Source: a phage. From it: a stretch of 64,000 bases of DNA. Shown one piece after another: positions 395-58,943 of the stretch. Both the position numbers and the translations under genes were made by a program. The notes beneath the pieces are model-generated. The model was not told where the DNA came from and ran no database searches. It saw only the letters and a list, made by a program, of their open reading frames with translations. Position 1 is the first letter of the stretch, and each line of letters opens with the position of its first letter. Location of the stretch: assembly GCA_025284135.1 (NCBI GenBank), contig GCA_025284135.1_3646.1. The stretch is one strand, 5' to 3'.

Positions 395-793
395 ATGATT
401 TCAGGTTTAACATGGCTTAGTAGGTATAGAGGGATCATAAAAGGTTTAGTTTTTGCAGCGGCTATAGGTACAGCTTATCTTGGGGCCGTGTATTGGTTTA
501 ACTCTAAGCTCAATGATGCTTATCAGGAAGGTGTGTCAGCAACAGAGTTAAAGTGGGAACGGATCCTTGACCAACAACAAAAGCAGGCCGACAAAATTAA
601 AATGGGCCACGCAGAGGAGGTTAAAAACCTTGAAAAATCCCTTTCTGATCTACAGGATAAATTAAATATAGCTGAGAGGGCAGGTAGAGAAAAGCAGATT
701 ATCTACCTCCAATCACCTGAAGGTAAGAAGTCAACACTTCCTGATCAGCTTATAGATATTTATAATGAGAGTATCAATCAGGAGGATCGATGA
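395..793 (+). CDS. i-spanin (Rz-like inner membrane spanin)
   Basis: 132 aa; single N-terminal TM segment (GLVFAAAIGTAYLGAVYWF) followed by charged coiled-coil region; 4-nt overlap with a downstream lipoprotein gene. Confidence 0.6.
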   Translation: MISGLTWLSRYRGIIKGLVFAAAIGTAYLGAVYWFNSKLNDAYQEGVSATELKWERILDQQQKQADKIKMGHAEEVKNLEKSLSDLQDKLNIAERAGREKQIIYLQSPEGKKSTLPDQLIDIYNESINQEDR

Positions 794-1077
794 GAGTTGC
801 CACACTGTTTATTGCGTGCTTGTTATTATGTGGGTGTGCAACCAGCGTTGAGAGAGAATACAAGATTGACCCTCCGGATGTAGGAAGGTTGATTGTTAAA
901 CCCCCAGAAGGTGCCATGAAACCACCTGCTAAAGCTATGCCTTTGAAGAAAGGTGCGCCAGATGCAGTGAATTCTGGCATTATGAGGGATAATAATCTGT
1001 CTTGTAGCAATGATAGAGCTAAATTGATCATTTTGCAAGACTATATTAGAACACTGTTTCCAAAGGAGAGAGGTTAA
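790..1077 (+). CDS. o-spanin (Rz1-like outer membrane lipoprotein)
   Basis: 95 aa; signal peptide with lipobox-like LLLCGC; proline-rich mature region (PPDVGRLIVKPPEGAMKPP); start overlaps i-spanin stop, stop overlaps terL start. Confidence 0.6.
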   Translation: MRVATLFIACLLLCGCATSVEREYKIDPPDVGRLIVKPPEGAMKPPAKAMPLKKGAPDAVNSGIMRDNNLSCSNDRAKLIILQDYIRTLFPKERG

Positions 1078-2624
1078 TGTCTAAGATTTACGGACCGTGT
1101 TCTGAAAAGCAGAAGATGATCCTCGAAAACGATGCAGATATCTTGGTAATCGGCGGTGCCGCAGGGTCTGGCAAGTCGTTCCTCTTGCAGTTGATGCCAC
1201 TTAAAATTATTGATGACCCCCACAGCTCTGTGGTTATGTTCCGAAGAACAACCCCACAGTTAGAAGGTGAGGGTGGACTATGGCCTAAAGCAGTAGCTAT
1301 TTATAGTGATCTGCCTGAAAACATTAAGCCAAAGTTCAGAGAGAAGGATCATAAGTTCATTTTTCCACGGTTTGATCCGAACACTGGTAAGTGGGATAGA
1401 AGCAAAAAGGGAGCTGTTGTAAAATACTGCCATATGGAGTATGTACAAGATAAGCTTAACCATCAGGGGCTTGAGTACACCATGGTTTGCTTCGATGAGG
1501 GCACGCAGTTCGAATGGGAGCAGATAGACTACCTGATGTCTCGTCTGCGATCTCAGTCAAAGTATCCATCAAGAATGGTTATCAGCTGTAACCCCGATTC
1601 AGAACACATGCTTGCCAAACTGGTTAGATGGTGGTTGGACGATGAAGGGTATCCAGATCCGGAGAAATGCGGTAAGAAAAGATATTTTATCCGACGCGAC
1701 GGTGAATTTATCTGGGGGGACTCTAAAGAAGAGTTGATAGAGAAATACACCACGGTTAACGGACTTGGTGTGGAGATCAAGCCAAGACCGTTGTCATTCT
1801 CGTTTATAGGCGCAACAATATTCGATAATCCTGTTTGCTTAAGAGACAACCCAGAATACCTTGCTTTCCTTGAAGGTCTGCCGGAACTGGAAAAAGCTCA
1901 GCTTCTTCATGGTAACTGGTTTGCAAAGCCTGAGGGCGCAAACTATTTTCAAAGATCTTTCCTTCGTGATGCCGATAGAGTACCCCTTGGATCAGTATCT
2001 TGCAGGGCATGGGATAAGGCAGGAACCGAGAGAACTTCCGGTAATAAATTTCCTGACTTTACCGCCAGTGTTAAGGTAAGTAAAGATAGCGACGGCTTTT
2101 ATTACCTGTCCGGTGATTATTGTCCTGAGAACGTGGATGACGGGAGGTATTCCACAGGCCTGGAAGGCAAGTTCTGTAAAAAGGCTGGTGAACGAGATGT
2201 GATCATCAGGAAACAGGCGCAGTTTGATGGTGATGATTGTATAATCGTATTCTCTGTGGACCCCGGTCAGGCAGGTAAGAGTGAGTTCTTAACCTCATCC
2301 AGATCCTTGCTCGCAGAAGGGTTCAGGGTTGAAGAAGACCCAATGCCTTCCAACAAGTCTAAACTGACAAGGTTCTCACCTTTTGCCAATCTTGCCCAAC
2401 AAGGGATGGTGAGGATTGTAAAATCCAGTTTCCATCCTGATACTCTGGAAGCATTTCTGACCGAACTTGAAAAATTCAACGGGGAAAGATCAACATTTAA
2501 CAGAAAAGACGACTGGGCCGACTGTGTAGCTTCTGCGATTAATTTCCTGGAGAAAGAGGAGGTAGCACTTCCTTGTGTGATTCCATCAATCTCCTCACCT
2601 TCTATGTTCAAGCGTTTTATCTAA
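1077..2624 (+). CDS. terL: terminase large subunit
   Basis: 515 aa; N-terminal Walker A P-loop GGAAGSGKS and ATPase-like region; C-terminal acidic nuclease-like region; immediately upstream of portal-sized gene. Confidence 0.9.
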   Translation: MSKIYGPCSEKQKMILENDADILVIGGAAGSGKSFLLQLMPLKIIDDPHSSVVMFRRTTPQLEGEGGLWPKAVAIYSDLPENIKPKFREKDHKFIFPRFDPNTGKWDRSKKGAVVKYCHMEYVQDKLNHQGLEYTMVCFDEGTQFEWEQIDYLMSRLRSQSKYPSRMVISCNPDSEHMLAKLVRWWLDDEGYPDPEKCGKKRYFIRRDGEFIWGDSKEELIEKYTTVNGLGVEIKPRPLSFSFIGATIFDNPVCLRDNPEYLAFLEGLPELEKAQLLHGNWFAKPEGANYFQRSFLRDADRVPLGSVSCRAWDKAGTERTSGNKFPDFTASVKVSKDSDGFYYLSGDYCPENVDDGRYSTGLEGKFCKKAGERDVIIRKQAQFDGDDCIIVFSVDPGQAGKSEFLTSSRSLLAEGFRVEEDPMPSNKSKLTRFSPFANLAQQGMVRIVKSSFHPDTLEAFLTELEKFNGERSTFNRKDDWADCVASAINFLEKEEVALPCVIPSISSPSMFKRFI

Positions 2625-2627
2625 GTG

Positions 2628-2656
2628 TTGCCAATCTTAATTAGATGTGGTAGAAT
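2628..2656 (+). promoter_or_regulatory. sigma70-type promoter, extended -10 (TTGCCA-N17-TGgTAGAAT)
   Basis: -35/-10 hexamers with 17-nt spacer and TG at -15/-14; same architecture recurs 7 times in the structural region. Confidence 0.5.
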
Positions 2657-2673
2657 AGAGTAATCGGAGATAC

Positions 2674-2702
2674 TAGCCCTCTAACACGAGGGCTATTTTG
2701 TT
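2674..2702 (+). promoter_or_regulatory. leader hairpin / terminator-like attenuator upstream of portal gene
   Basis: Perfect 8-bp inverted repeat TAGCCCTC-TAACAC-GAGGGCTA followed by TTTTGTT, located downstream of promoter 2628-2656 and upstream of the portal start. Confidence 0.4.
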
Positions 2703-2726
2703 ATACTGTTTTGAGGGGTAAAGCTT

Positions 2727-4283
2727 GTGTCCAAAAAGAACCGCAGGAAACACAACGCCACAGCCAAAACTGTGAATAAATCTGGGAACGCAGGCGCACC
2801 AACTCATAATGTTCGTATGAGTGAGATCGGTTCTGGCGCACTTTCCCAAATTATGGCAGAATCGCAATCTATGATGGTTGAGGAATTGCGTTGGCCTCAG
2901 CTGATTGCCACAGTGGAGACTATGAAATGTGATTCCACAGTTGCTACTGCCTTAGATACAAAATATGTTTTCATCACGAAAGCATTCAATGATTTTAAGA
3001 TCCTTTATAATGTTAAAAGTGAAGACTCTAAGAAAGCTGCCGAGCTTATAGAGTATTCTTTGCGTAATTTGGCAAACCAACAAACTCTTCGAGATATTGC
3101 AAGAAGCGCAGCTACCTTTAACGAGTATGGTTTTTCACTGTTTGAGAAAGTATACCGCAGAGAGAAAGAAGGTAAATATGCCGGGATGCTTCTTATTGAT
3201 AAAATTGCATTCCGACCTCAGGCCAGTCTGTCCAGATCAGAGCCGTTTGTCTTTGACAAGAATAGCAGAACACTGACAGGTATTTATCAGTCACCTAATG
3301 CATTTCTAAACACTCAGAATGCACGCTGGGCTGGACCTCTTGCTGCAATGCCTTCAAAAGGCTTTAATGAGCCTGAAATTTTCATCCCTGCTAAAAAGCT
3401 TATGCTCATGACCCTGTCAGGAACAGAATCTAACCCTGCAGGTGTGTCACCTATGATAGGTTGCTACAGATCTTTCCGTGAGAAAGTTCTGATTGAAAAC
3501 CTTGAGGTTGTTGGCTGTTCCAAAGACCTTGGTGGTGTGCTTGAGCTGAAAATTCCTTCCAATATTTTGAACAAGGCCAGCATTGACCCTAATTCAATGG
3601 AAGGGAGAATGGTTGCAGACCTTATGCTTGACGCAGCAAACGCCCATAGTGGTGAGCAAAGTTTCTTTATACTTCCGTCTGATAGAGATAAGTCTGGTAA
3701 AGAGCTTTACTCCATGACCCTGAAGGGGGTTGACGGTATGGGTAAGCAGTATTCCACTAAAGATTTGATTGATGCCCGTAAGAAGGCGATTCTTGACCGT
3801 TTCGGTGCTGGCTTTATTAACCTCGGTAACGATAACGTTGGATCCTTCTCTCTGTCTGAGTCAAAACAGTCTATCCATGGTCATTTTGTTCAGCGTGATA
3901 TAGATATTATCACTGAAGCCTTCAATAAAGATCTTATTCCACAGCTTCTGGCATTGAATGGTATCATCCTTGAAGATGATGATATGCCTAAACTGAAACC
4001 TGGTCTGATTGAAGAAGTGGATATGGAGAGCTTCTCCAAGTTTGTCCAGAGGATCGGTGCTGTAGGTTACTTGCCAAAAACTCCTGCAGTAATTAATAAG
4101 ATTCTTGAAGTAGGTGGGTTTGATGAAAGATTTGACGAGGACATGGATCAGGAAGAGCTGATGAAGCTCTTGGGCCAGGACATCAGTAGGGCTGGTGATG
4201 GAATGGCTGCAGGATCCACTGGTAACGGCACTTCTAAGATGTCATCAACCAGAGATAATTCCATATCCAACATGGAAAATTAA
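2727..4283 (+). CDS. portal protein (putative)
   Basis: 518 aa; GTG start with GAGGGG Shine-Dalgarno; canonical position directly after terL and before scaffold/capsid genes; size typical of portal proteins; no motif confirmation. Confidence 0.7.
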   Translation: MSKKNRRKHNATAKTVNKSGNAGAPTHNVRMSEIGSGALSQIMAESQSMMVEELRWPQLIATVETMKCDSTVATALDTKYVFITKAFNDFKILYNVKSEDSKKAAELIEYSLRNLANQQTLRDIARSAATFNEYGFSLFEKVYRREKEGKYAGMLLIDKIAFRPQASLSRSEPFVFDKNSRTLTGIYQSPNAFLNTQNARWAGPLAAMPSKGFNEPEIFIPAKKLMLMTLSGTESNPAGVSPMIGCYRSFREKVLIENLEVVGCSKDLGGVLELKIPSNILNKASIDPNSMEGRMVADLMLDAANAHSGEQSFFILPSDRDKSGKELYSMTLKGVDGMGKQYSTKDLIDARKKAILDRFGAGFINLGNDNVGSFSLSESKQSIHGHFVQRDIDIITEAFNKDLIPQLLALNGIILEDDDMPKLKPGLIEEVDMESFSKFVQRIGAVGYLPKTPAVINKILEVGGFDERFDEDMDQEELMKLLGQDISRAGDGMAAGSTGNGTSKMSSTRDNSISNMEN

Positions 4284-4350
4284 AAATTATCAACACAGGG
4301 GGTTGCAAAACCTCCTTTGGCGTGATAAAATAATCCACATGGGGAATAAT

Positions 4351-4770
4351 ATGCCACAGGAAGAAATGATTTCCTACGAAATCATCTACGAGCCTGACAC
4401 TAAAGATGCTCACGGTGAGTGGATGAGTAAAGACACCATCAAAAAGGCTAAAGATAACTGGGACGCAGCATACGCCGCAGGCCTAGTTTCTGAGAACCTT
4501 TTCCACTTGACCTCTACAGATGCTTTCACCATTGAAAAGACGTGGATTCAAGAAGAGTTTGATGTTGTAGTAATTGGCACTGAGCAGGTCATCAAGGCTG
4601 GCTCTTGGGTTGCTAAAGTTAAATACAATAATCCTGAACTATGGGAAGCTAAGAAGGCTGGCATTGTTGGTGGCCTAAGCATTCAGGCAACAGGTAATGT
4701 TGATGAAGAAACTGGTGAAATTACCAACGTAAACTTCGGGATCAGTGTTGTAGAAGAGGGCAATGAATAA
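4351..4770 (+). CDS. head morphogenesis protein, possibly XkdF-type prohead protease-like
   Basis: Track ORF 4195-4770 overlaps portal by ~90 nt; internal ATG at 4351 preferred. Motif PDTKDAHGEWMSKDTIKKA resembles the conserved N-terminal D-x-H-G-D/E segment of XkdF-like phage proteins; position between portal and scaffold. Confidence 0.35.
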   Translation: MPQEEMISYEIIYEPDTKDAHGEWMSKDTIKKAKDNWDAAYAAGLVSENLFHLTSTDAFTIEKTWIQEEFDVVVIGTEQVIKAGSWVAKVKYNNPELWEAKKAGIVGGLSIQATGNVDEETGEITNVNFGISVVEEGNE

Positions 4771-5747
4771 TGTCTGAAAAAACGATTACTATTAAAGAGA
4801 AGGGGATTGCCCTGTGCCATAAGGCGCAAGGCTATAGCGCTAACAACAGACCTGTATCTCTTTTGATGAAGAGTGATCTTAAGCCTGAGCAGTTAACAGA
4901 CGATATTGTTAAGGCACTTCGCCAAGTTACTGTGGAGCTTAGTTTTGAAGAATACCTGCGTCGTTTCTTCGATATGTGGTATGATGATGCTAAAGCACTT
5001 GCACACATGCTTGGTTTTGAGATTGAAGAGGAGGCTTGGGCTAAAGAGCATCCTGATTGGGAATGGGCGCAAGCTGACGCAGAGTCTTGTATTGCATGGC
5101 TGGAAGAGCGTTGTGATAACGTGACCATTCATAAGGCTGCAAAAGAAGGCAAGCAGCTTAGTGTGGTAGATCAGTACAGCCTGTTAAAAACACAACAGAT
5201 TTTTGAACAAGTAACCGCTGATCTCTTCGATAAAGAAGGGAACCTGATCAAGGCGGTACAGGAACCTGCTGAGGTGGATAAAACTACCGAGGTGGATGAT
5301 GTTGCAAAATCCGCAAATACCGAGGAGAATCCGGTGGACGTAACCAAAACTAAAGAGTATCTGGATCTGCTGAAGCAAGTAGAAGAGCTGAAAGCAACCC
5401 AGAGTAAAGCTGAAGAAATCATCAAGGCCCAGGTTGAAGTTGAAAAAGCTAAAATGCTGACTAAGGCTCAAGCTTTAAGCTTTGTTGGTGAAGAAGATCA
5501 CGCAACCCTGGTTGACTTCATGCTGGAGAAAGCTAACGAACCTATCGTAGCTATGCTGGAGAAAGCTCAAGCAAAAATTGAAGAGCTGGAAGCAGAGGTG
5601 CATAAAACTAAAGAAGAGTTTGCCACCACTGAACATGGTAATGATGGCGAACCTGTTGTGGATGATATTGCAAAATCCGCAGAAGAAATTCTTGCTGAAA
5701 ACGTTGCAAAAGCACTTGCTCGTGCACGTGCAGAATCTAACAAATAA
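4770..5747 (+). CDS. scaffolding protein (putative)
   Basis: 325 aa; acidic, Ala/Glu/Lys-rich with long predicted coiled coils (EELKATQSKAEEIIKAQVEVEKAKMLTKAQA); located between portal and major capsid genes. Confidence 0.6.
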   Translation: MSEKTITIKEKGIALCHKAQGYSANNRPVSLLMKSDLKPEQLTDDIVKALRQVTVELSFEEYLRRFFDMWYDDAKALAHMLGFEIEEEAWAKEHPDWEWAQADAESCIAWLEERCDNVTIHKAAKEGKQLSVVDQYSLLKTQQIFEQVTADLFDKEGNLIKAVQEPAEVDKTTEVDDVAKSANTEENPVDVTKTKEYLDLLKQVEELKATQSKAEEIIKAQVEVEKAKMLTKAQALSFVGEEDHATLVDFMLEKANEPIVAMLEKAQAKIEELEAEVHKTKEEFATTEHGNDGEPVVDDIAKSAEEILAENVAKALARARAESNK

Positions 5748-5767
5748 GACATTAACGGGGGAAATAA

Positions 5768-6154
5768 ATGATTACCGCTCAATATTCTGATATCGTGCTC
5801 GGCAAAGTTGATTCTAGCGATGCTGGCTACAATTTTAAAGAGATTAAGGTAACACTGACAGAGCATCACCACGCTGGTACTGTTGTAACAAAAACAGGTA
5901 CCATCGCTAACGCAGACGGTTCTGATGTGTACGGCGTTCTTGTTGACCGTGCTCTTGTCAAAGATGCTGGTACGGTTCATCTTGCAAAACCTTTAGAAGT
6001 AGGTCAATCCTATAACCTGGTTGTTGCCGTCCATGGTGTTACCTTTGCAAAAGATATGCTGTTAGGTGCAGATGGAGCTAAAGCAGACCAAAGAATTCTG
6101 GATAAGTTGGAAGCTTTAGGTAACAAAGTTCACGTCCAGACTCTTGGTGAATAA
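5768..6154 (+). CDS. head decoration/auxiliary capsid protein (putative)
   Basis: 128 aa; position immediately upstream of major capsid gene as for lambda gpD; no convincing sequence similarity to gpD itself. Confidence 0.35.
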   Translation: MITAQYSDIVLGKVDSSDAGYNFKEIKVTLTEHHHAGTVVTKTGTIANADGSDVYGVLVDRALVKDAGTVHLAKPLEVGQSYNLVVAVHGVTFAKDMLLGADGAKADQRILDKLEALGNKVHVQTLGE

Positions 6155-8829: not shown

Positions 8830-8858
8830 TTGCTTTTGATGTATCTTTGTGGTAAAAT
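8830..8858 (+). promoter_or_regulatory. sigma70-type promoter, extended -10 (TTGCTT-N17-TGgTAAAAT)
   Basis: Shares the GGTAAAATAC -10 motif with promoters at 12352, 26507, 32324. Confidence 0.4.
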
Positions 8859-26467: not shown

Positions 26468-26474
26468 CTGTTTT

Positions 26475-38298: not shown

Positions 38299-38309
38299 GA
38301 GGAGGTGTT

Positions 38310-38624
38310 GTGGAGTTGGATTTGGCGGCATTGTACGGTATCTGCATGGGTACCGTTGTCCCGATCTGTGTATGGGCTTTCAACCAGTGGCACACTAAAT
38401 GGAAAGGTATTTCCAAGAGGTTGGATGAACTGGAGAAAGACCTCATCTTAGTGAAAAACAGTATGGTTACAAAAGATAAACTTGATTCCGTTATCGAGAC
38501 CCGGTTAAGCAAGCTAGAGGCCGATATTAACGACCTTAAGCAGGATGTCAGGACAGATGTCTCCGGTATCCGAGCTGATGTACAAAAGATTTTGCACATG
38601 CTTGTAGAGCATAGTAAAAGGTAA
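38310..38624 (+). CDS. small membrane-anchored coiled-coil protein (function unknown; holin/antiholin-like or exclusion candidate)
   Basis: 104 aa; GTG start with GAGGAGG SD; one N-terminal TM (LAALYGICMGTVVPICVWAF) then coiled coil; sits between Tfa and second fibre gene. Confidence 0.35.
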   Translation: MELDLAALYGICMGTVVPICVWAFNQWHTKWKGISKRLDELEKDLILVKNSMVTKDKLDSVIETRLSKLEADINDLKQDVRTDVSGIRADVQKILHMLVEHSKR

Positions 38625-38654
38625 ACAAAGGTCAGAACGGAAAGGACTCCGTTC

Positions 38655-38683
38655 TTGCATTTTGTTCTCTAAAGTGTTAAAAT
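38655..38683 (+). promoter_or_regulatory. sigma70-type promoter, extended -10 (TTGCAT-N17-TGtTAAAAT)
   Basis: Hexamers with 17-nt spacer upstream of second fibre paralog. Confidence 0.5.
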
Positions 38684-38713
38684 AGTCCTAAGGAATTTTC
38701 TCAGGAGAACGTG

Positions 38714-39757
38714 ATGACTAAACCAGTTATCCCTCTTGATATTTGGGCCAATCAGGATGTTGTGCTTGAAAATACGGGAGAGTTGAATAAGTCTCAACCA
38801 AAAAAAGAAGATAGATTGAAAGGTTGGGATATGACACAAAGAATGGCATGTGAAGTTGTTAACTTTGAACTTCACATGCTTTCTGCGTGGTTGAAGCATT
38901 TAACAGAAGATGTTGTCCCGGGATGGGATAATAGATTCTTAAGGGTCACTAATAATCTAGCAGACGTTCCAGACAAAGCTGCTGCACGTCAAGTTCTCAA
39001 TGTATACTCGCCTGAAGAAATGGACGATCTATATGTTGACAAGTCTGGAGACATAATGACTCAGACTCAAACTTTAGGTCTTCAAAGAATCGAGTTTGCA
39101 TCTGCGTCAACAGACAATGCGGCAATATATACCACCATAACTCCAGACAAGACGACAATGGACTTCTGGATTATGGACAACATCGGCGGTGCTGACGGCA
39201 CAGACCTTGATGATCCTTCTCACCAAATAGACGGGTTCCGTTGGAGATTTCAACCTTCTGGTGGTCAGCCTGTGTTTTCGGCTATGAAGCTCAATGCTAT
39301 AACTGCCAACCGTGCAAGACTGGCTATCCAAGGAAATCTTGAATGCAACGATGCAAAAAGTTCCTCTGCAAATGCCAATGCGGTCACGATACCAAGAGCC
39401 ACTGTTAACGGACAACAGTCCTGCGGAAGCGCTCAAATAGGTGAAAGAGTTGATTGTAACGATGAAACCGTTAGGGGCCAATATGCAACAGTCGGTGGAA
39501 GAAACGTGGTCCGTAGGGTAAATGGTAGTAGCGCAGACAGTAGTGGTAACCTTACTATTCCTATGCCTAGTAGGGGTGTTGAAGATGTAAGGATAGCAAA
39601 CCGTTTCAGAACCACCTACAGAGAATCAAGAGTATACCCTGGGCATGTAATGTGCTCCGGCAATTACGCCTATAAACACCCGTATCAGGGCGACTATTGG
39701 ACTGGAGCCATTCAAAAATTTGTAAATGGTCAATGGATCACTATATCTTATGCTTAA
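38714..39757 (+). CDS. tail fibre protein (P2 gpH-type C-terminus), paralog B
   Basis: 347 aa from ATG 38714 (track gives GTG 38711); N-terminus (PLDIWANQDVVLEN...) and C-terminus (YWTGAIQKFVNGQWITISYA) paralogous to 36659 gene, central region diverged. Confidence 0.7.
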   Translation: MTKPVIPLDIWANQDVVLENTGELNKSQPKKEDRLKGWDMTQRMACEVVNFELHMLSAWLKHLTEDVVPGWDNRFLRVTNNLADVPDKAAARQVLNVYSPEEMDDLYVDKSGDIMTQTQTLGLQRIEFASASTDNAAIYTTITPDKTTMDFWIMDNIGGADGTDLDDPSHQIDGFRWRFQPSGGQPVFSAMKLNAITANRARLAIQGNLECNDAKSSSANANAVTIPRATVNGQQSCGSAQIGERVDCNDETVRGQYATVGGRNVVRRVNGSSADSSGNLTIPMPSRGVEDVRIANRFRTTYRESRVYPGHVMCSGNYAYKHPYQGDYWTGAIQKFVNGQWITISYA

Positions 39758-39768
39758 AAAGAGGGTAA

Positions 39769-40035
39769 ATGAAACTAACTCAGTTTTTATGGGGACTGGT
39801 TGCGGCATCTGATGACCCTACGAAAGTGTCCCAATCTAAGCTATGGTCGAATATAGGCATGGCGGTGATGACTGGGGTGTTTATTCATATGGGGTATAAT
39901 GATACGCTTCCGGAATGGTATGCGTGGATATACGCACCTTCAGTAGCCTGCCCCCAGCTTATTAGCAAATTCATCTCGCTCCGGTGGGGTTGCCAGCACC
40001 CTGACCACGTTAAAAACGAAGAGCAAAAAGCTTAA
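39769..40035 (+). CDS. small hydrophobic protein (holin-like candidate)
   Basis: 88 aa; two to three hydrophobic segments (FLWGLVAA, IGMAVMTGVFIHMG, WYAWIYAPSVA) and charged C-terminus; no motif match. Confidence 0.3.
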   Translation: MKLTQFLWGLVAASDDPTKVSQSKLWSNIGMAVMTGVFIHMGYNDTLPEWYAWIYAPSVACPQLISKFISLRWGCQHPDHVKNEEQKA

Positions 40036-40044
40036 GGAGAAATC

Positions 40045-41838: not shown

Positions 41839-44800
41839 ATGCTTCCAATCCCTTTGCTAAAACTTGGTCGTCATTTCCTCGATAAGAGGGGTGGAATTAA
41901 GGAACTTGCTGTTCTGTCATACCCAATAGACAACAGTGACGGTACAAGCACTACAGTATCCTATGTAAACAGCTTGGCTATACTTTTTGACGATGGTCAA
42001 CTTAATATTACGGGCTATAACAAGTTCGGGGAGTGTCGCACTGGGGATCGTAACCCTATAAACTACCCGAGCGAAACAGCATGGAATGTTGATCATGTGT
42101 GGAGAGCAGACCGTGCGTTTGTGATCCGAACTTTTGATAATCAGTTTTTCTACATCGGCTGCACTGCAGGGCTTATTGGATCTGATGCTGCAGGTGGTAA
42201 TGATGTTTGTGTAAGGGAGTGGACACCTCTTCCTGAACAGATTGTTAAAGGGTTGCACCTTGACACCCACCCGGAGCGCCTTGTTGAGGTGATGGGTGGT
42301 ATTAACAACACTGTCTGGGTTATTGCAGAGGCAGAAGGCACAGGCATACTGAATCTGTATGGGTCTGGTAACAACACCTACGGATCTTTGCATGTAGATA
42401 AAAATCAGCATGCAACCCCTGTAAAGATTGGTGAGACATCGGAAAATCCTGAAACAGGCCCTTGGAAAAACCCAAGCATTAACTGCGAGGTGCATGACAA
42501 CTCTGTTATTTTCGGTGGTCCTAGAGGTTTCTGGATTGCTGGATACGACTTTCTGAGAAATAACAGTAGAAACGACCTTGTTTGGCCTCCTGTGCAGATT
42601 ACTCGTAACGATTTGAGAGGCATTCCTGCAGATGAGGAGTGGAAAGGGTTTATGTGTGGTCCTAACGGGGCAATAATCGCCACACAGAGGATGCACACAC
42701 CCAATGACCAGCAGCTTGTTAACGTATTCTACGGGCAAGACGTCTGGGGAGATGACACATGGCGTTCCTTAAATATCACCTACACCCATGAGGTGATAAT
42801 GGCTCGTGGATACGGCACAAGTGGCATTTTCTTCAATAATGGCACTAAGCAGTATCGTGGATTCTCTCGCAACTTGTGCAATGATATTGGTGCACAATCT
42901 GCAAACAATAGCCCTAGGGCTAATTTTATCCACTATCGGGCTCTTGCTACAGCTAAATATGTTGAGCAACGCCTGCCAGTTAGCTGGACAGAGAGTGTTT
43001 ATTTCCAAGGCATTCACAGGGAAGGTTTCTTAGGAACCTTTACTGTTGTTAATGGCAAACTTTGGTGGTCAGGCATCCCAAGGGGAAGTTTTGCAGGCTC
43101 TAACAACCTGTTTGGCGGCAGACTTAATAGTCAGGGGTTCACAGAGGTTCCTGAGAATTGGTATAAAAATGTCCCGGTAGATAGTTGGGGTGTTGATGAT
43201 ATTTTCGACGTTAACGGTGTTAGCAGCGTTAGCAATATTTACATTGGTGACACGGTCAAGATGAAATTGAAGCCTCAGCCAGAGGGGGCTACGTTCATTA
43301 TTGACAAGATTGAACTGGTAAATGCTGCAGGCACGGTTGTTACAGATGCAAATTACCAATTCTCCACCAACTGGAACCACGGCGGGGCCAACGAAGTTGT
43401 TGTTACCCAGTATAACAGAAATGTTAACAGACGTGGCCTGTACTCTGTAAAAATAACCTATCATGACAAGCATGGCACAGGCAGAACTCACACAACAAGG
43501 ACTTTGAACTGGAACACCATAGTTCCTGCGTATCCGTCCAACGGCAAGTGGCATACTGTCGGTAGAAACAAACAGTTCCATGTCAACAACACTGTATACT
43601 TTGGACTGAATGGGGCTCAGCCTGTAGTAGAAGGTGATACAGCATACATGGTCAGACTACATAGAATGGATGCTGGATCAGCCACGTATGATGTTACCCA
43701 AGAGATTTATGATCAGCGACGAAATACTTACAACAACTTGGTGCAGACACAAGCTGTATGGGAGTTCAATCCTAACGGCAGAGGTGGTAAAATGTTACAG
43801 GTTAACGAGCAAAACGGAACATCGTTGACTGTCCACGAACACCCAGACCCTTGGCGTGATCCTGGAAAACCTAACCCAGGCGCTCGTACACTGAAAATTG
43901 TCAGCCATGATGTAGGATATTTCGGAATACGCTGGGAAGCTACAGTAAGATATGCCGACGGGACGACAAACAATATTGGGATCACCCTTGGTGGCACTAG
44001 TGAGGATAACTCACTGAAAATTGCCTATACACCTAGAGGAATCTCTATTGATAGTATGGATGTTGTTCGCAACGGTTACGGCGATGTGAATGTCAAAGTT
44101 ACTCTTGGCGAACATCTTGGTGGGGAAAGGATCATCATGTATGCCTTTGATCATGACCCTCGCACCAATGGAACCTATGCAGACCAAGCATGGAGTTACC
44201 TGATAAGCGCACCTGAGCCAAATACTAAAGAATTCTACTATGGTATGAAACGAGATGTGTGCAAGAAAACAGGAACACATGACTGGATTGCTATCTGCGT
44301 TAAAGATGAACGAACAGCTTGGGATGAGCCTGTTAACAGATGGTTCATAGGAATTCCTGCCCGAAGTGATAAATATGTTGAAGAATATATTGTGTGCATG
44401 GGAGGCACCAACCTGAACTTGTGTTGGAACGAGGATGCAAACAAATACTCTGATTATGACTATATGCGGGACTATTCTTGCAATCAGTGGTTTAACCAAC
44501 CCGGATATGCTGATCGACAGGCAAGGGTGAATCCTGCAATCTTTACAGATACACAGGTTTTCTTGACAAAACAGGCTAACGAGGTTCAGACCTTCAAGAA
44601 CAAATACGATCCTAACAAGTGGTTTTATAACTGTTATGGCGCATTTTTCTGGGGTCCTGGCGAACTACCTAATGGAGGATCTTGCTTCGAGGCTGCAACT
44701 TACGCCAGTGACAGGTTTATGGGGCAGGTTAAGAAGTACAAGATAATCCCCGGTCCTGAAACTCTGGGCAATGCCGTTGACCCTTATATCGTCATGACTG

Positions 44801-47463
44801 TGCTGAGATCAAACATGGATGGGACATCCATGTCTATGCAAGTTCCAGTAACAAACGGGTACAAACGTGTTGTGATGATCATTAAGTGCGACTTAATAGG
44901 TAAGCAAGTTCTTGCAGAAAACGGAACCTCAACACATTTATTCGAGACTGCTCTGCATTATCAGTTTGCTGATTCACCTTTTGCAGGGGATAAGAGAATA
45001 TCTGATACAGACAATGCTCGATGCAAGAAATTTATGCTTGGTGGTGGATGGTGGTGGTATGAATTTGATTTAACAGACAAATTCACTGACACGTCTAAAG
45101 TGGTGACAGGGCTTCGTCTAGATCTTGGCGAAAACATGCACAAAAGTGTTTGTGATGGCACCTACGGTGACCCAACAATCTACTTAAAGTATGTTTCTTT
45201 TGAGCACCCAGAGGATGTCGTTTATGGTCCAAAACTGAGACTGTTTGGCAATTGGATTGCTAAAGACAGGGCAGGTATGGGTAAAAAGGTAAGAGGGTTC
45301 TTAGTGGATGCAGGAACAGAAGACATGTTGGTTAATGCAGTGTGGCCTGAATTACCGGGAACTCAGTGGGACAACTCTGCTAAATCTATAAACTGGTTCA
45401 ACATTCACAGAGCTATGTGGACAACTAACTGCTACCTGTGGAAAGAGTTGAATGACGGCGCTTTCGGGTTTACAGGTGGCAGAAGAATGGCAATCATCTG
45501 CTGGACAACGCTGCAAAGATGTTATGACCATGACTACGAGATTGGAGGTAGGGCATGGAAAAATATTAGAGATAGAATCATAACTAACTTCGCAGACCCT
45601 AATGGTGGTGGAGCGTATGGCTTCGACTGCAGCAGGCTCATCCATTTGAACGGGTCCTCTGCATATAAGAAAGAGGGTTACTCTGGGTCCATGATTGAGT
45701 GGGGTCTGGTGAAAGATGCTCGCGTATTGATGGGTCAACAACTTGCTGCTGCAATAGGACCGAACGCAGTACAATCTGTTAAACCAGCGTGGTTCGATAT
45801 CCCATTATGGTCCTCTGGAACACCAGGAACTGCTGTGATCAACCCTACCACTGGGGATCTGGAAATCTCTTGGGAGGACTTGAAGCAGGTCGGTGGTTGG
45901 GACAAAACAGGGTATCAGGTTCAATGGTGGAGGGCTGATGGATCTTTAGCCGCTGATGAGTTTGTTAGGGACAATTTCTACACCATGTCCTCTGCAAAAG
46001 CACAACAACTGTTCGGTCAGGCTACCCCGTCAACGATCACCATGTCCATGTGCTGTAAAGACAACAGGACTGGAGCTTTGGGGCCAAGGGTTGCTAAAGT
46101 TTTCTCAGGTATCAAATGGAATCTTCCTGTTCAAAGTGTTGCATGGAAGCAAATAGGTGATAACAAGCTGCTGGTTACTCCTGCTTGTCAGTTCAACGCA
46201 ACTCTTAACGTTGATCCTGCTGTTGCGGCAAACTCAGCTAAAGCTTCTGACTTCTCTGTGTCTAACACTGCTATGGCAGATGTGAGGAAGATTGACACGC
46301 TGAACGCCAGAATTACCTGTAAAAACACTTATGGCACATTCCAGATCATCAACAACTTCACAGACGCGGACTCTAAGGTAGTGAGGACAGCAAGCCAGAC
46401 TCTGAGTTTAGGAACTCTGGCCTATGCGGCCCTGATCACTGAACAGTCAGCAACACTCCAAGGGGGTGGTGTAGGCAAGTCCATTACAACACCTGTGTGG
46501 AAGCCAAATGAGTGGGTTGTGTTTGATTTGACTGTAGACTTCTCCAGCGATAATAACTGGACATGGGTAAGGAATTGTTTGTCACAGTTGATGGGCGGTC
46601 CAAGCTCCATTAGCGATAGTCACGACTCTACTGACCCGAGTGTGTTCCAGGTAGGCAAAACTCACCCGGAGACTGGAGCAACGTTGCCTGACAGGAAGTA
46701 TGCTTTGGTTTGCATCTCTTACGGGAAGGCAGATGTCACCTTCTCAGGGACACACACTTATAACGGAACCTACAATTTCTCAAGGAAGTATAGTCTCAAA
46801 GCGGGAAACATTGTAGACGAGGTTGGTGTGCTGTATAATCCTGGCAACGGCATAGGGATTGTGGGTGGTAAACTGCAGATGCAGGAACCTTCTATTACCC
46901 CTTCCAATGTGTCTGGGATTAGAAAGACTTGGGAAAGCAGTAATACCAACATTGCAACAGTGGATGCTACCACAGGGCTGGTAACATTTAAAGCTACTGG
47001 GAATGTCACCATAAAGTTTGTAGTTACTGATGATGCAGGGCGCAAAACGTCTTCAACATCGTTTACTGTCAGACAGATGGCACCTCAGTGGTTTATTTGG
47101 GAAGGAAATCCTCTTGACGGGACTTACCCTAGACCTGCAGGAACGTCCAATATGAGGGTCTTTACCGGTCCGGTCATGGACAATCCGACCACAACCACCA
47201 ACCCTACATTTTTTGGTGCTTACATACCTGAAATTATTGGCCTACCAAGGAACCAGATACAACTGCTTTTCGGAGCAGGTGTTGATGGCCTAGCCACTTT
47301 TGGGTACAGTGACAACATCGATGCAGCCAGAAGCTCGGGTTGGATTGGATTTAAGTTCCAGTGGAACCCTGGTGGTAGAACATTAGGTCTTGCAAGCATA
47401 GGTGTTATGCTACCTGGTAACCAGCAATACCATCTCGAAGCTTATACAAACTTCCCTAGTTAA
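41839..47463 (+). CDS. giant structural protein (1874 aa) with RCC1-like repeats and C-terminal Ig-like (Big_2-like) domain; probable adhesin/fibre
   Basis: N-terminal repeated Gly-rich blades (ITGYNKFGECRTGD, LYGSGNNTYGSLHVD, FYGQDVWGDDTWR) resembling RCC1/beta-propeller repeats; C-terminal SNVSGIRKTWESSNTNIATVDATTGLVTFKATGNVTIKFVVTDDAGRKTSSTSFTV resembles bacterial Ig-like group 2 domains; last gene of the plus-strand structural block. Confidence 0.45.
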   Translation: MLPIPLLKLGRHFLDKRGGIKELAVLSYPIDNSDGTSTTVSYVNSLAILFDDGQLNITGYNKFGECRTGDRNPINYPSETAWNVDHVWRADRAFVIRTFDNQFFYIGCTAGLIGSDAAGGNDVCVREWTPLPEQIVKGLHLDTHPERLVEVMGGINNTVWVIAEAEGTGILNLYGSGNNTYGSLHVDKNQHATPVKIGETSENPETGPWKNPSINCEVHDNSVIFGGPRGFWIAGYDFLRNNSRNDLVWPPVQITRNDLRGIPADEEWKGFMCGPNGAIIATQRMHTPNDQQLVNVFYGQDVWGDDTWRSLNITYTHEVIMARGYGTSGIFFNNGTKQYRGFSRNLCNDIGAQSANNSPRANFIHYRALATAKYVEQRLPVSWTESVYFQGIHREGFLGTFTVVNGKLWWSGIPRGSFAGSNNLFGGRLNSQGFTEVPENWYKNVPVDSWGVDDIFDVNGVSSVSNIYIGDTVKMKLKPQPEGATFIIDKIELVNAAGTVVTDANYQFSTNWNHGGANEVVVTQYNRNVNRRGLYSVKITYHDKHGTGRTHTTRTLNWNTIVPAYPSNGKWHTVGRNKQFHVNNTVYFGLNGAQPVVEGDTAYMVRLHRMDAGSATYDVTQEIYDQRRNTYNNLVQTQAVWEFNPNGRGGKMLQVNEQNGTSLTVHEHPDPWRDPGKPNPGARTLKIVSHDVGYFGIRWEATVRYADGTTNNIGITLGGTSEDNSLKIAYTPRGISIDSMDVVRNGYGDVNVKVTLGEHLGGERIIMYAFDHDPRTNGTYADQAWSYLISAPEPNTKEFYYGMKRDVCKKTGTHDWIAICVKDERTAWDEPVNRWFIGIPARSDKYVEEYIVCMGGTNLNLCWNEDANKYSDYDYMRDYSCNQWFNQPGYADRQARVNPAIFTDTQVFLTKQANEVQTFKNKYDPNKWFYNCYGAFFWGPGELPNGGSCFEAATYASDRFMGQVKKYKIIPGPETLGNAVDPYIVMTVLRSNMDGTSMSMQVPVTNGYKRVVMIIKCDLIGKQVLAENGTSTHLFETALHYQFADSPFAGDKRISDTDNARCKKFMLGGGWWWYEFDLTDKFTDTSKVVTGLRLDLGENMHKSVCDGTYGDPTIYLKYVSFEHPEDVVYGPKLRLFGNWIAKDRAGMGKKVRGFLVDAGTEDMLVNAVWPELPGTQWDNSAKSINWFNIHRAMWTTNCYLWKELNDGAFGFTGGRRMAIICWTTLQRCYDHDYEIGGRAWKNIRDRIITNFADPNGGGAYGFDCSRLIHLNGSSAYKKEGYSGSMIEWGLVKDARVLMGQQLAAAIGPNAVQSVKPAWFDIPLWSSGTPGTAVINPTTGDLEISWEDLKQVGGWDKTGYQVQWWRADGSLAADEFVRDNFYTMSSAKAQQLFGQATPSTITMSMCCKDNRTGALGPRVAKVFSGIKWNLPVQSVAWKQIGDNKLLVTPACQFNATLNVDPAVAANSAKASDFSVSNTAMADVRKIDTLNARITCKNTYGTFQIINNFTDADSKVVRTASQTLSLGTLAYAALITEQSATLQGGGVGKSITTPVWKPNEWVVFDLTVDFSSDNNWTWVRNCLSQLMGGPSSISDSHDSTDPSVFQVGKTHPETGATLPDRKYALVCISYGKADVTFSGTHTYNGTYNFSRKYSLKAGNIVDEVGVLYNPGNGIGIVGGKLQMQEPSITPSNVSGIRKTWESSNTNIATVDATTGLVTFKATGNVTIKFVVTDDAGRKTSSTSFTVRQMAPQWFIWEGNPLDGTYPRPAGTSNMRVFTGPVMDNPTTTTNPTFFGAYIPEIIGLPRNQIQLLFGAGVDGLATFGYSDNIDAARSSGWIGFKFQWNPGGRTLGLASIGVMLPGNQQYHLEAYTNFPS

Positions 47464-51445: not shown

Positions 51446-51711
51446 TACTCTTCCTCCATAGTTTCACCAAATACTTCGATACGAGCATCGAGCTCGGTTG
51501 CTTTCAGCTCCCCAACAAAATCTTTTAGTTCTTTCTCGTCCAGATCGTAAGCCCACACACAAGAAGAACATGCAGATTTCACAATCAGCAGAGTAGATAC
51601 CTGTCCTGACTCTGTAATCAGGCTCACAACAGTTCCCACAGGGAACGTGTTGAGAGCTTTTTTAACCGGGCGCTCAGCTTTAATTACTACCTCTGTTGCC
51701 ATAAATAACAC
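51445..51711 (-). CDS. hypothetical acidic protein (88 aa)
   Basis: ORF; acidic C-terminus (GETMEEE). Confidence 0.4.
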   Translation of the reverse strand: MLFMATEVVIKAERPVKKALNTFPVGTVVSLITESGQVSTLLIVKSACSSCVWAYDLDEKELKDFVGELKATELDARIEVFGETMEEE

Positions 51712-54291: not shown

Positions 54292-54331
54292 GCACCCATT
54301 CGAAAGAAAACGAACACAGGAGTACTTAATC

Positions 54332-55496: not shown

Positions 55497-55509
55497 GGAG
55501 ACCTTGCCG

Positions 55510-56123: not shown

Positions 56124-56125
56124 TA

Positions 56126-56506: not shown

Positions 56507-56550
56507 TGGGCAGGAATGGCGGCAAGGATGCTGCTTAAGGAGTAGTAGAG

Positions 56551-56820
56551 ATGTTATACCAGCAATATGAACTTCGTGCAGAAAAAGAGTTAAATTTTGA
56601 CAAAGATATTCACAGATATTATTATGGGAAAGTTAGAGGGCAAGCAAGAAAGTGTACTCCAACACTCTTTTATGCCAGCAGACGACTAGCGCCAGAAGAG
56701 GCAACAGCAGAAAGGGTTGCGTACAACTGGAGAGTCACGTATGATATTGACAGATCCGATGTGATATCTGTTTTGGAAAACTTTGAAAACACTTACACAC
56801 AAGTAGAGGACTTTTACTAA
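56551..56820 (+). CDS. hypothetical protein (89 aa)
   Basis: ORF immediately upstream of and overlapping the AAA+ ATPase start. Confidence 0.4.
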   Translation: MLYQQYELRAEKELNFDKDIHRYYYGKVRGQARKCTPTLFYASRRLAPEEATAERVAYNWRVTYDIDRSDVISVLENFENTYTQVEDFY

Positions 56821-58004
56821 TGTCAAGAAACGTATTTGAAAGTGGTCAAATCACTGTCCGTGAGTTGCCAGCTATCATTCAGTTTGCCCAGCGTCATAAC
56901 CGATCTGTCCTGATTTTAGGACCAATGGGCGTGGGAAAGAGCCGGGTGATGAAGCAGATCGCAGACAATATGTTCGGTGAGCGAGATGACAACTTGGTTG
57001 ACGTGCGGTTGTCAGATAAAGATCCTGCCGACTTATCTGGGCTACCTATCCCTGTAGAAGCGGATGGAACTACACGTACAGTGTTTGCAATTCCAGAATT
57101 TTGGCCTGCGGATCCTGACTGGAGCGGAATTATCTTTCTGGATGAGCTCACTCATGCAGATAACTACCTGCAAAAGGTTGCAATGCAAATTATGCTCGAC
57201 CACAAGTGCGGTACCTATGCATTCCCTAAAGGTTCTGTTTTTGTGGCTGCTGGTAACCGTTCTACAGATGGTGCGGTTCTTTCGGCGCTCGAAGCCCCTC
57301 TGGCTAACCGTTTTATCATTGTAGAAGTTACAAGCAATGCAGAGGTGTTTATTGAGGACTACGCATTCCTTAATGGGGTGCATTCCTCTGTAATTGGATA
57401 TCTGAAAAGAGTTCCATCAGCTATCGATAATTATGAGGCTATGGCTGAGATTAATTGTCCATCTTTTGCCACACCGCGATCTTGGGTTGCTGCATCTGAT
57501 ATCTTGCACGATTTTGACAGCGGCATTATTTCTGACGCTATGGCCCGTGTTCTTCTGCAAGGTGCTATTGGTCACACTGCAGCGGTAGAGATCTGGACTT
57601 ACCACACCAAGAAACGCAACTTACCGGAAATCGGTCGGATTATGGCAGGAGGTTGCAAAGAATATGTAGGTCCTAAACAGCCAGACATCTTGTGGATTCT
57701 TGGATCTGAAGGTTGTATCGCTATTCGTAATATGATGGAAAATGCAAGTATCTCCGACGAAGATCTTGTTAGCTGTGTGGCAAACTTCCTCGATTTCCTT
57801 TGGGGAAACTTCAAGGATGAGAACCGAGATTTTGTATTCTCAGTCTTTATGGCGATGATGAAACCTAATGCCTTAGGAAATGCCTTGCTTATCGGTAAAG
57901 GTCGTGACAAGATTGTTGCTCAGCTGATCAAAGCATACCCAAACCTGATGAAGATTGTAAAAGAGTTTGGTGAAGAGTTTAGCGCCATTTTGGCTAAAGC
58001 TTAA
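56820..58004 (+). CDS. AAA+ ATPase, MoxR/AAA_5-like
   Basis: 394 aa; Walker A GPMGVGKS, Walker B IIFLDEL, sensor-like AAGNRSTDG; domain order typical of MoxR/CbbQ/CobS-type ATPases. Confidence 0.75.
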   Translation: MSRNVFESGQITVRELPAIIQFAQRHNRSVLILGPMGVGKSRVMKQIADNMFGERDDNLVDVRLSDKDPADLSGLPIPVEADGTTRTVFAIPEFWPADPDWSGIIFLDELTHADNYLQKVAMQIMLDHKCGTYAFPKGSVFVAAGNRSTDGAVLSALEAPLANRFIIVEVTSNAEVFIEDYAFLNGVHSSVIGYLKRVPSAIDNYEAMAEINCPSFATPRSWVAASDILHDFDSGIISDAMARVLLQGAIGHTAAVEIWTYHTKKRNLPEIGRIMAGGCKEYVGPKQPDILWILGSEGCIAIRNMMENASISDEDLVSCVANFLDFLWGNFKDENRDFVFSVFMAMMKPNALGNALLIGKGRDKIVAQLIKAYPNLMKIVKEFGEEFSAILAKA

Positions 58005-58013
58005 GGAGGTTGT

Positions 58014-58394
58014 ATGGCTAAAGTAGGTAAGCGGGGAAACTACCTAGTGGTATTGACCGAGGAGCCCGAGAAGGAGTACGAATGCAGCTCCACTTGCGTG
58101 ATCGATATCCGAGAAAAAGATGTAGATGAAATCTGGTTTGAAATATTGGACGCTTGCGATAGCAGTGATTATTTCTTCATCTATGTCAACGATAAGGCTG
58201 GGTTCTTCCATGACGACGGAGAGTTGCCGTATGAAATCTATGAACTTGTAGAGGCTTGCCATCGTGGAGATGCGGAGTTGTTTGGCTTACGGCTGAAAAG
58301 CGGTAAATTCTTCTATCAAGATGAGTGCATGAATCTTCATAACTTTGTAGAGGGAACTTGCAACGATGGAGAGATTCTGGCACACTACGATTAA
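58014..58394 (+). CDS. strongly acidic small protein (126 aa)
   Basis: About 29 Asp/Glu vs about 11 basic residues; followed by terminator. Confidence 0.45.
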   Translation: MAKVGKRGNYLVVLTEEPEKEYECSSTCVIDIREKDVDEIWFEILDACDSSDYFFIYVNDKAGFFHDDGELPYEIYELVEACHRGDAELFGLRLKSGKFFYQDECMNLHNFVEGTCNDGEILAHYD

Positions 58395-58404
58395 TTTCTA
58401 AGAC

Positions 58405-58433
58405 CACCCCGCTTCGGCGGGGATTTTCTATTT
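58405..58433 (+). terminator. intrinsic terminator (UUCG tetraloop)
   Basis: CCCCGC-TTCG-GCGGGG followed by ATTTTCTATTT; same hairpin core as at 32290. Confidence 0.75.
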
Positions 58434-58442
58434 GGAGTTATT

Positions 58443-58943
58443 GTGAAAATTAAGATCTTTGCTATTATTTTGAGCGCATTTTTATCGCTGCCTGTTGTTG
58501 CAGCACCAAAACAAAAAGTATACCATACTTGCAAGCCATCAGATACTAAGGAAAACATTCTAGCATGCAATATCTACAGGGAAGCTAGAGGAGATGGCAC
58601 GATGGGTATGCTGGCATCTGGGTTTGCCACCCTAAACAGAAAATCTCATCCCAAATACCCAGACACTATAAGAAAGATTGTCTACCAACCTAATCAGTTT
58701 TCGTGGACAAACTACGGCAAAACTTTTAAGGTGACAGAAAAAGATTCATGGGATCACGCTAAAAGTCTTGCAAAGATGCTTCTAAAGGTCTATAATAACA
58801 ACCATGTTGCATACATGGCTATGGATATAACAGGTGGAGCAACACACTACCATACAACCAAAGTACGACCGAAATGGGCAAAAAAGATGCAGAGGACAGC
58901 TCAATTCGGGAGCCATATCTACTACAAGGAGCGCAATAAATGA
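58443..58943 (+). CDS. secreted cell wall hydrolase, SleB/CwlJ-type (Hydrolase_2-like); endolysin candidate
   Basis: 166 aa; GTG start with GGAG SD; N-terminal signal peptide (MKIKIFAIILSAFLSLPVVAAP); motifs ACNIYREARGDG, GMLASGFATLNR, YPDTIRKIVYQPNQFSW match the conserved blocks of SleB-family hydrolases. Confidence 0.7.
   Translation: MKIKIFAIILSAFLSLPVVAAPKQKVYHTCKPSDTKENILACNIYREARGDGTMGMLASGFATLNRKSHPKYPDTIRKIVYQPNQFSWTNYGKTFKVTEKDSWDHAKSLAKMLLKVYNNNHVAYMAMDITGGATHYHTTKVRPKWAKKMQRTAQFGSHIYYKERNK

Follow-up and report, generated by a model that had tools for sequence, protein, structure and literature searches.

RESULTS

Lysis genes in a segment of a Vequintavirus genome

The DNA analyzed here is a phage contig of 64,000 nucleotides (nt) (GCA_025284135.1_3646.1 of GenBank assembly GCA_025284135.1), the whole of which is called the window below. 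It carries a spanin gene pair directly upstream of terL, the gene for the terminase's large subunit, and about 57 kb away a gene for an exported SleB/CwlJ-type peptidoglycan hydrolase next to rIIA and rIIB; two small open reading frames (ORFs) in the tail-fiber locus between them had been taken for holin-like genes. The window is a segment of a Vequintavirus, an rV5-like myophage of Escherichia coli, and the lysis arrangement seen in it is already known. A sequence-only reading of this DNA had described the lysis functions as dispersed, which is a published property of rV5-like phages (PMC3606486, PMC7344957, PMC6658697).

The first 6 kb of the window matched 122 phage records, 111 of them at 95–99% identity, and nearly all of the matching records belong to Vequintavirus phages of Escherichia (rV5, FV3, nimi, LL12, and BASEL Bas48-59). 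The identity to phage nimi over the 6 kb was 98.9%, and in a local megablast the entire window was collinear with nimi (MN850626, from 129270 to 64552) at 93–97% identity. The window spans less than half of a genome of ~137 kb. By the annotations of the relatives, it opens with the spanin/terL end of the structural block, takes in the tail and fiber genes, and reaches the replication block at its rII/helicase end. The Vequintavirus genomes have identical genes, gene order, and overlaps at 95–99% DNA identity, which holds for the spanins and terL, for the series MoxR-hypothetical-SleB-rIIA-rIIB-helicase, and for the small fiber-locus ORFs. Only allelic differences from the window were seen: terL is split by introns or HNH genes in rV5 and others, and the fiber genes have variable stretches.

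A two-component spanin upstream of terL

The features at the terL end of the window are as follows.

345..377, plus strand: terminator-like GC hairpin with a U-run, immediately 5′ of the spanin genes; fold −16.9 kcal/mol
395..793, plus strand: i-spanin, 132 amino acids (aa); full-length match to phrog_4297 "Rz-like spanin" (E 2.6e-48)
790..1077, plus strand: o-spanin, 95 aa; match to phrog_1267 "Rz-like spanin" (E 1.8e-22)
1077..2624, plus strand: terL, 515 aa; annotated as terL in >100 near-identical records

The i-spanin has a single N-terminal transmembrane domain (TMD; ~residues 14–36), with R10, R12, and K16 ahead of or at its start, followed by a periplasmic part that is rich in charged residues and helix-prone, and its homologs in phages nimi and A51.2 are annotated as i-spanins. 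The o-spanin bears the lipobox LLCG|C16 with Ala17, not Asp, at the +2 position (MRVATLFIACLLLCG|C16-A17; checked by eye with a PROSITE-style rule) and a Pro-rich mature domain. It contains one further Cys (C72), and the i-spanin contains none. The i-spanin stop overlaps the o-spanin start by 4 nt (790–793), and the o-spanin stop overlaps the terL start by 1 nt. Judged by these features, the two predicted proteins are a two-component spanin of the Rz/Rz1 type. The spanins of the rv5 family were placed in the "separated" architecture class in the 2018 spanin census (PMC6139136).

The hairpin at 345–377 divides the spanin-terL block from an upstream region of tRNA genes and small ORFs. No holin or endolysin adjoins the spanins among the neighboring ORFs, which were checked by PHROG and TMD inspection; the ORF just upstream (20–289) encodes a protein of 89 aa with no TMD and no known function. 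The sequence-only reading was thus right in placing a spanin pair at exactly 395–1077, directly 5′ of terL, and in finding no holin or endolysin beside it.

In the window, terL is a single uninterrupted ORF; in rV5, slur12/16, ECML-10, magaca, and others it is split by intron or HNH endonuclease insertions. Such splitting has been described for rV5 (PMC3606486) and LL12 (PMC6658697).

An exported SleB-like hydrolase in the rII block

The SleB-like gene and its neighborhood comprise the following features.

56597..56625, plus strand: sigma-70-type promoter match TTGACA-17-TATTAT (11/12, the best of the region), upstream of the MoxR ATPase gene
56820..58004, plus strand: MoxR-type ATPase, 394 aa, by the annotation of relatives
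58014..58394, plus strand: acidic, Cys-rich hypothetical protein, 126 aa, no TMD; phrog_12370, function unknown
58407..58432, plus strand: GC hairpin CCCCGC-TTCG-GCGGGG followed by a T-rich tail, ATTTTCTATT; −15.1 kcal/mol, terminator- or attenuator-like
58443..58943, plus strand: predicted exported SleB/CwlJ-type (Hydrolase_2) peptidoglycan hydrolase, 166 aa, GTG start; Pfam PF07486 (E 4e-19)
58940..60922, plus strand: rIIA, 660 aa, GHKL-type ATPase; HATPase_c_3 (E 1.8e-8), annotated as rIIA
60933..62138, plus strand: rIIB, 401 aa, by the annotation of relatives
62138..63508, plus strand: RecD-like helicase, first gene of the replication block, by the annotation of relatives

The SleB-like ORF matched the Pfam Hydrolase_2 profile with 69.5 bits (cutoff 27) over positions 2–100 of 100, and it also matched the SleB catalytic-domain structures PDB 4F55 and 4FET; the rV5 record annotates the gene as "SleB" (ORF 2). 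Its N terminus, MKIK-IFAIILSAFLSLPVVA|APKQK, has the n-h-c layout of a signal peptide (~residues 1–20) with a VVA|A site that follows the −3/−1 pattern; signal peptides were judged from sequence rules throughout. The reading of this ORF as a SleB-type hydrolase with a signal peptide is therefore borne out. Every SleB-like homolog examined bears an N-terminal signal, mostly with a clear AXA site (including those of CR3, phAPEC8, SSBI34, the T5-like Spc35, and KPP10), so that export to the periplasm is a conserved property. Residue E47 is invariant in 11 aligned homologs (31–81% identity) and aligns with the Glu of GESRGE in 4F55, which we take from the SleB structures to be the catalytic residue. 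R66, a QFS motif, and D128/T130/G132 are also invariant in this alignment. The predicted enzyme is very probably active.

In the phage protein, the catalytic domain is preceded by only the signal peptide and ~25 residues, and there is no N-terminal peptidoglycan-binding domain. The protein shares with the SleB/CwlJ spore-cortex lytic enzymes of Bacillus the fold family of the catalytic domain (PF07486; 4F55/4FET) and the Glu of a Y-x-E-[AS]-R-G motif, but Bacillus SleB has an N-terminal peptidoglycan-binding domain. The host has no cortex with muramic-delta-lactam, and therefore the substrate of the phage enzyme must differ from that of Bacillus SleB/CwlJ. A Cys pair, C30/C42, with C42 five residues before E47, is kept in most homologs of the rV5, CR3, phAPEC8, and SSBI34 types. 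The pair suggests a predicted periplasmic disulfide near the active site, which fits the periplasmic location of the protein.

No other peptidoglycan hydrolase domain was found by Pfam scans in the window, which covered 21 of its tail, baseplate, and fiber proteins; the other small ORFs were judged by the annotations of nimi, rV5, and BASEL phages. A virion-associated role for the SleB-like protein was considered and rejected, as a cleavable signal peptide is incompatible with assembly in the cytoplasm; such a role is also disfavored by the absence of the protein from the virion proteins named in the running text of the rV5 proteomics account.

The SleB-like stop overlaps the rIIA start (ATGA). 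The hairpin at 58407–58432 ends 11 nt ahead of the SleB-like start region, and the promoter match at 56597–56625 sits where the rV5 record annotates promoter P4, inside the ORF before the MoxR gene, a correspondence drawn from gene order and not from alignment. The SleB-like gene has no holin neighbor and is placed, downstream of a sigma-70-type promoter, within the rII/replication block and not in a lysis cassette.

The N-terminal ~100 residues of rIIB resemble two repeats and gave a weak match to the SPOR domain (E 0.0014; 19.3 bits, below the cutoff of 21). The SPOR fold binds peptidoglycan, and its occurrence beside an exported wall hydrolase is curious, but the match may be due to chance.

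Distribution of the SleB-like gene and transcription signals

Homologs of the SleB-like protein occur in 1336 phage records, including Certrevirus, Phapecoctavirus, T5-like phages, and the KPP10-like Pseudomonas phages. The gene belongs to the replication module in Vequintavirus, CR3, SSBI34, and KPP10 and is found there upstream of a helicase gene; in CR3, SSBI34, and KPP10, one to three small genes separate the two. The presence of rIIA/rIIB beside it is confined to Vequintavirus, there being no adjoining rII gene in CR3, SSBI34, phAPEC8, and VivaForever; conservation of the SleB-rIIA adjacency beyond the genus was accordingly rejected. In Certrevirus CR3, gp086, a protein of 62 aa with two TMDs, is encoded directly 3′ of the SleB-like gene and overlaps it (3977–4165 of the CR3 stretch compared). 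A small two-TMD neighbor was also rejected as an ancestral trait, since it was found in Certrevirus only and not in phAPEC8, SSBI34, Spc35, or KPP10.

A SleB-like hydrolase with a signal peptide has been reported for all genera of the subfamily and was described as toxic in E. coli in the CB7 paper (PMC7344957, section 2.8); this remark is the only functional work on phage SleB-like proteins found in the literature. The SleB-like gene is accompanied in the same genome by a second lysin, which is R-like in Vequintavirus and a T5-type peptidase in CB7 (PMC7344957).

The late-type motif of rV5, TGGTAAAATA, which the rV5 authors compared with the late promoter of T4 (PMC3606486), has exact copies on the plus strand of the window at 8850, 12372, 26527, and 32344, a few tens of bases 5′ of structural genes, and one-mismatch copies ahead of the genes at 2727 and 38711. 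It was found upstream of structural genes only and not upstream of the spanins, the SleB-like gene, the R-like lysin, or the holin candidate, and therefore it gives no information on the timing of the lysis genes.

A lambda R-type endolysin of relatives, outside the window

Phage nimi encodes next to its DNA ligase a "lysin" of 162 aa, nimi_3, which matched the lambda lysozyme R (PDB 1AM7) over its full length (E 2.9e-49), keeps the catalytic-site segment YSEGT of lambda R, and matched phrog_90 "endolysin" (E 4.8e-52). Pfam gave no match to this protein at E <= 0.01, and the assignment was resolved by the PDB sequence search and the PHROGs. The N terminus of nimi_3 is hydrophilic, and therefore the protein has no export signal. 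Phage records with this locus number 121 and are in essence those that also match the window; where the matches listed carry an annotation, they name it lysin, lysozyme, or endolysin. The single record of RudolfGeigy (BASEL) has the endolysin at 126833–127321 on the minus strand, a tRNA cluster at 136147–136959, and a 270-nt ORF at 137006–137275 on the plus strand, the last of which was equated with window 20–289 by length and position and not by alignment. The relatives accordingly carry the R-like endolysin gene on the opposite strand, next to the DNA ligase gene and ~9.7 kb upstream of the point where the window starts; tblastn found no homolog of it inside the window.

The rV5 genome paper of 2013 had already called gp89 "an obvious lysin" (PMC3606486). 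The ortholog of phage ECP26, which is rV5-like, is LysECP26; it shares 98% identity with the rV5 lysin and 62% with lambda lysozyme, and the purified protein lyses EDTA-treated (permeabilized) Gram-negative cells (PMC9728275). Inside the 64-kb window, the SleB-type protein is indeed the only endolysin candidate, as the sequence-only reading had stated; genome-wide it is not, the relatives carrying the R-like endolysin. The further proposal that the signal-peptide SleB-type protein is the sole, holin-independent endolysin is not supported in view of a separate lambda R-type endolysin in collinear relatives and the muralytic activity of LysECP26.

A protein of 68 aa is encoded 3′ of the R-like endolysin gene in nimi (3108–3314); it has a signal- or lipoprotein-like N terminus and belongs to phrog_4641, of unknown function. 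In some relatives, an inserted HNH endonuclease gene parts the two genes. By its position, the 68-aa protein is a possible lysis accessory or regulator.

Holin candidates

The rV5 genome paper named gp129 as a holin candidate (PMC3606486). Its homolog in nimi (24668–24904) has 78 aa with two very hydrophobic TMDs and 6 K/R among its last 15 residues, and the gene lies outside the window, ~32 kb upstream. Two ORFs in the fiber locus of the window had been read as encoding holin-like small membrane proteins:

38310..38624, plus strand: protein of 104 aa; phrog_5345, unknown function; relatives annotated as hypothetical or "tail fiber protein"
39769..40035, plus strand: weakly hydrophobic protein of 88 aa; phrog_1322 "membrane protein," moron/host-takeover category

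There are 117 records in which both ORFs are conserved. The product of ORF 38310, which directly follows a tail-fiber assembly gene (Caudo_TAP), has one TMD at residues 5–23, positive charges after it, and then a coiled coil of ~75 residues, with a predicted N-out/C-in topology. In the product of ORF 39769, the maximum Kyte-Doolittle mean over 19 residues is 1.05, which is below TMD level. Neither ORF matched a holin family in Pfam or PHROG, and these databases likewise gave no holin label to the gp129-like protein, nimi_86/87, or CR3 gp086. The description of the two fiber-locus proteins as holin-like is weak, one combining a single TMD with a coiled coil and the other having no TMD-grade segment, and by their sequence features they are predicted to be poor holin candidates. 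The gp129-like protein is, on the same kind of features, the best candidate and a much better one. The relatives have a canonical endolysin elsewhere in the genome, which in essence goes against the sequence-only reading, and a two-TMD holin candidate elsewhere again; a contiguous holin-endolysin cassette was not found.

Other observations on the window

The megablast against nimi left gaps at window 25596–26473, 30123–31297, 47091–47398, and 51457–51691, which correspond to locally divergent or replaced segments in the large tail-fiber genes and in a minus-strand block of small genes. The fiber locus closes with a protein of 1874 aa (41839–47463) that has Ig-like (Big_2) domains in its C-terminal part and is labeled in relatives only as hypothetical or "cell wall surface anchor." GenBank has about 16–19 records under the name "Campylobacter phage" (MG0656xx, host C. 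jejuni) that share 96–98% identity with this E. coli Vequintavirus; the likeness covers the whole window, e.g., 1–6000, 38250–40100, and 58000–59100. These records are probably mislabeled or contaminating coliphages.

DISCUSSION

Lysis by dispersed genes

The arrangement of lysis genes found here has been described in the rV5 genome paper (2013, PMC3606486), the spanin census (2018, PMC6139136), and the CB7 paper (2020, PMC7344957); in the published layout, the spanins adjoin terL, a lysis cassette is absent, "as in T4," and the whole subfamily has an exported SleB-like hydrolase. The apparent oddity of the arrangement arises from where the window ends and vanishes when the rest of the genome is considered. 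We regard it as probable that these phages use a standard holin-endolysin-spanin lysis with unlinked genes, as in T4, and with the SleB-like protein as an accessory.

According to this model, the genes for i-spanin and for o-spanin would open the packaging and morphogenesis block in translational coupling to terL, so that the means for the outer-membrane step would be made together with the structural genes. The main endolysin would be the soluble, signal-less homolog of the lambda R-type transglycosylase, which would accumulate in the cytoplasm; as it has no export signal, a hole-forming holin would be needed, and the gp129-like 78-aa protein with two TMDs is the candidate that may release it. 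The spanins would then fuse the membranes. The SleB-like protein would be a fourth, accessory player, exported by Sec, cleaved by signal peptidase, and present in the periplasm before lysis. Its gene block would be read from the sigma-70-type promoter through MoxR to rIIA, rIIB, and the helicase, with the attenuator-like hairpin before the GTG start, and because of this start codon and the hairpin, we infer expression at a low level. By analogy with Sec-exported endolysins, the SleB-like enzyme may add to or speed the breakdown of the wall once the holin collapses the membrane potential, and it would not be the endolysin that determines the timing. This specific accessory role in lysis is put forward tentatively, with the balance of probability leaning somewhat against it.

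Several points weigh against this picture. In none of the family databases is a protein of Vequintavirus labeled as a holin, and the annotators of LL12 were unable to identify one (PMC6658697). Both the R-like endolysin and the candidate holin are known from near-identical relatives only, because the window stops short of them. The "early" and "low-level" expression of the SleB-like gene is suggested by one promoter match and one hairpin, and a literature search found no usable transcript or timing data for Vequintavirus. In Certrevirus, where a two-TMD protein (CR3 gp086) follows, the two look like a real lysis pair, and the SleB-like enzyme may therefore matter more for lysis than is assumed here; its CB7 homolog is reported to be toxic in E. 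coli, with the data not shown there (PMC7344957).

Other roles for the SleB-like enzyme and other holins

It has to be considered whether the SleB-like enzyme acts early and outside terminal lysis as a periplasmic wall-remodeling factor that loosens or turns over peptidoglycan and is perhaps tied to rIIA/rIIB. Such a role would suit the link of rIIA/rIIB to envelope integrity in T4, the translational coupling of the gene to rIIA behind a host-type promoter, its position in the replication or early module upstream of the helicase in Vequintavirus, Certrevirus, SSBI34, and KPP10, and the wide spread of the family (1336 phage records), often alongside another endolysin. However, the rII adjacency is limited to Vequintavirus, with no rII neighbor in CR3, SSBI34, phAPEC8, or VivaForever, and a lytic role would account for the toxicity on expression just as well. 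We therefore consider this role unlikely.

Even less support can be given to the SleB-type hydrolase as a functional endolysin that is delivered by Sec without a holin and lyses the cell together with the terL-side spanins, which we judge to be very improbable. It is true that the signal peptide of the protein is real and its catalytic Glu intact, that its domain is the only Pfam-recognizable muralytic domain found in the window, that RefSeq and pharokka-style annotations label it "endolysin," and that the CB7 homolog is toxic in E. coli and the gene is followed in Certrevirus by one for a two-TMD protein. However, the close relatives have a lambda R-type endolysin just outside the window, whose ortholog is lytic by experiment, and rV5-like phages, as well as CB7, have another lysin besides the SleB-like gene. 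This gene has its place in the sigma-70/rII/replication block and not among the late genes, with the rV5 late-type motif absent upstream, and if an active lysin were exported without regulation from early in infection, the cell would be at risk of lysing prematurely.

In T4, the holin gene t follows the tail-fiber gene 38, and the small membrane proteins encoded in fiber loci usually serve to block receptors or in exclusion, as do Cor and Llp. That ORF 38310–38624 or 39769–40035 is the missing holin, in parallel to T4, is hardly credible: the place of ORF 38310 behind a tail-fiber assembly gene resembles that of t and its product has one TMD, both ORFs are conserved in 117 records, and the genus has no identified holin (PMC6658697), but the predicted topology of the ORF 38310 product is opposite to that of T4 T, with the coiled coil in the cytoplasm and without a charged tail at the C terminus, the ORF 39769 product has no convincing TMD, neither ORF matches a holin family, a Cor- or Llp-like function is the usual one at such a place, and the gp129-like protein is far more classical, with its two strong TMDs and K/R-rich tail.

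Comparison with known lysis systems

The standard lysis with unlinked genes that we favor can be compared with several known systems. In T4, e, t, pseT.3/pseT.2, rI, and rIIA/B are scattered, and the likeness, which was drawn by the rV5 authors (PMC3606486) and in the spanin census (PMC6139136), lies in the unlinked genes for endolysin, holin, and spanins, in the separated spanin architecture with stop and start abutting, and in the presence of both rIIA and rIIB. The rV5-like phages differ from T4 in that their endolysin is of the lambda R type and not of the T4 E type, their spanins are beside terL, no homologs of T, RI, and RIII were detected, and they have an extra exported SleB-like hydrolase. 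With the S-R-Rz/Rz1 system of lambda, they have in common the same three functional classes, present or inferred, an endolysin ~60% identical to lambda R, and a two-component spanin of a TMD protein and a lipoprotein; in contrast to lambda, they have no cassette, their spanin genes are not embedded, and the candidate holin is unrelated.

Sec-exported endolysins are represented by Lys44 of Oenococcus phage fOg44, and signal-arrest-release (SAR) endolysins by Lyz of P1 and R21 of phage 21. The SleB-like protein resembles both in its N-terminal export signal, by which it would reach the wall without a holin. It differs in its Gram-negative host and its Hydrolase_2 family, in not being the sole lysin, and in having no holin neighbor in Vequintavirus, and its AXA-type site looks cleavable, unlike a SAR anchor.

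Certrevirus has the SleB-like proteins CB7_83 and CR3_087 (Buttimer et al. 2020, PMC7344957), which are orthologous exported hydrolases (46% identity to CR3) encoded at the same replication-module position upstream of the helicase. In Certrevirus, however, a holin-like protein of 62–65 aa with two TMDs follows the SleB-like gene, whereas rIIA/rIIB hold that place in the window.

Significance

A more far-reaching idea is that the exported SleB-like hydrolase and the translationally coupled rIIA/rIIB constitute one Vequintavirus module, or that the hydrolase is a Sec-dependent second endolysin; we regard either as quite improbable. If the module were real, a potentially lethal wall hydrolase would be placed early in the periplasm and kept harmless by the rII proteins or the membrane potential until the holin fires, which would give rII a concrete biochemical partner. 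If it were a second endolysin, the SleB-like enzyme would permit lysis without a large-hole holin.

As it stands, the finding correctly describes a portion of a phage genus that is well sequenced, and it matters little. Proving the holin of Vequintavirus or the role of the SleB-like enzyme, which is shared by >1300 phage genomes (rV5-like, T5-like, KPP10-like, and others), would fill a real, if modest, gap in the understanding of phage lysis.

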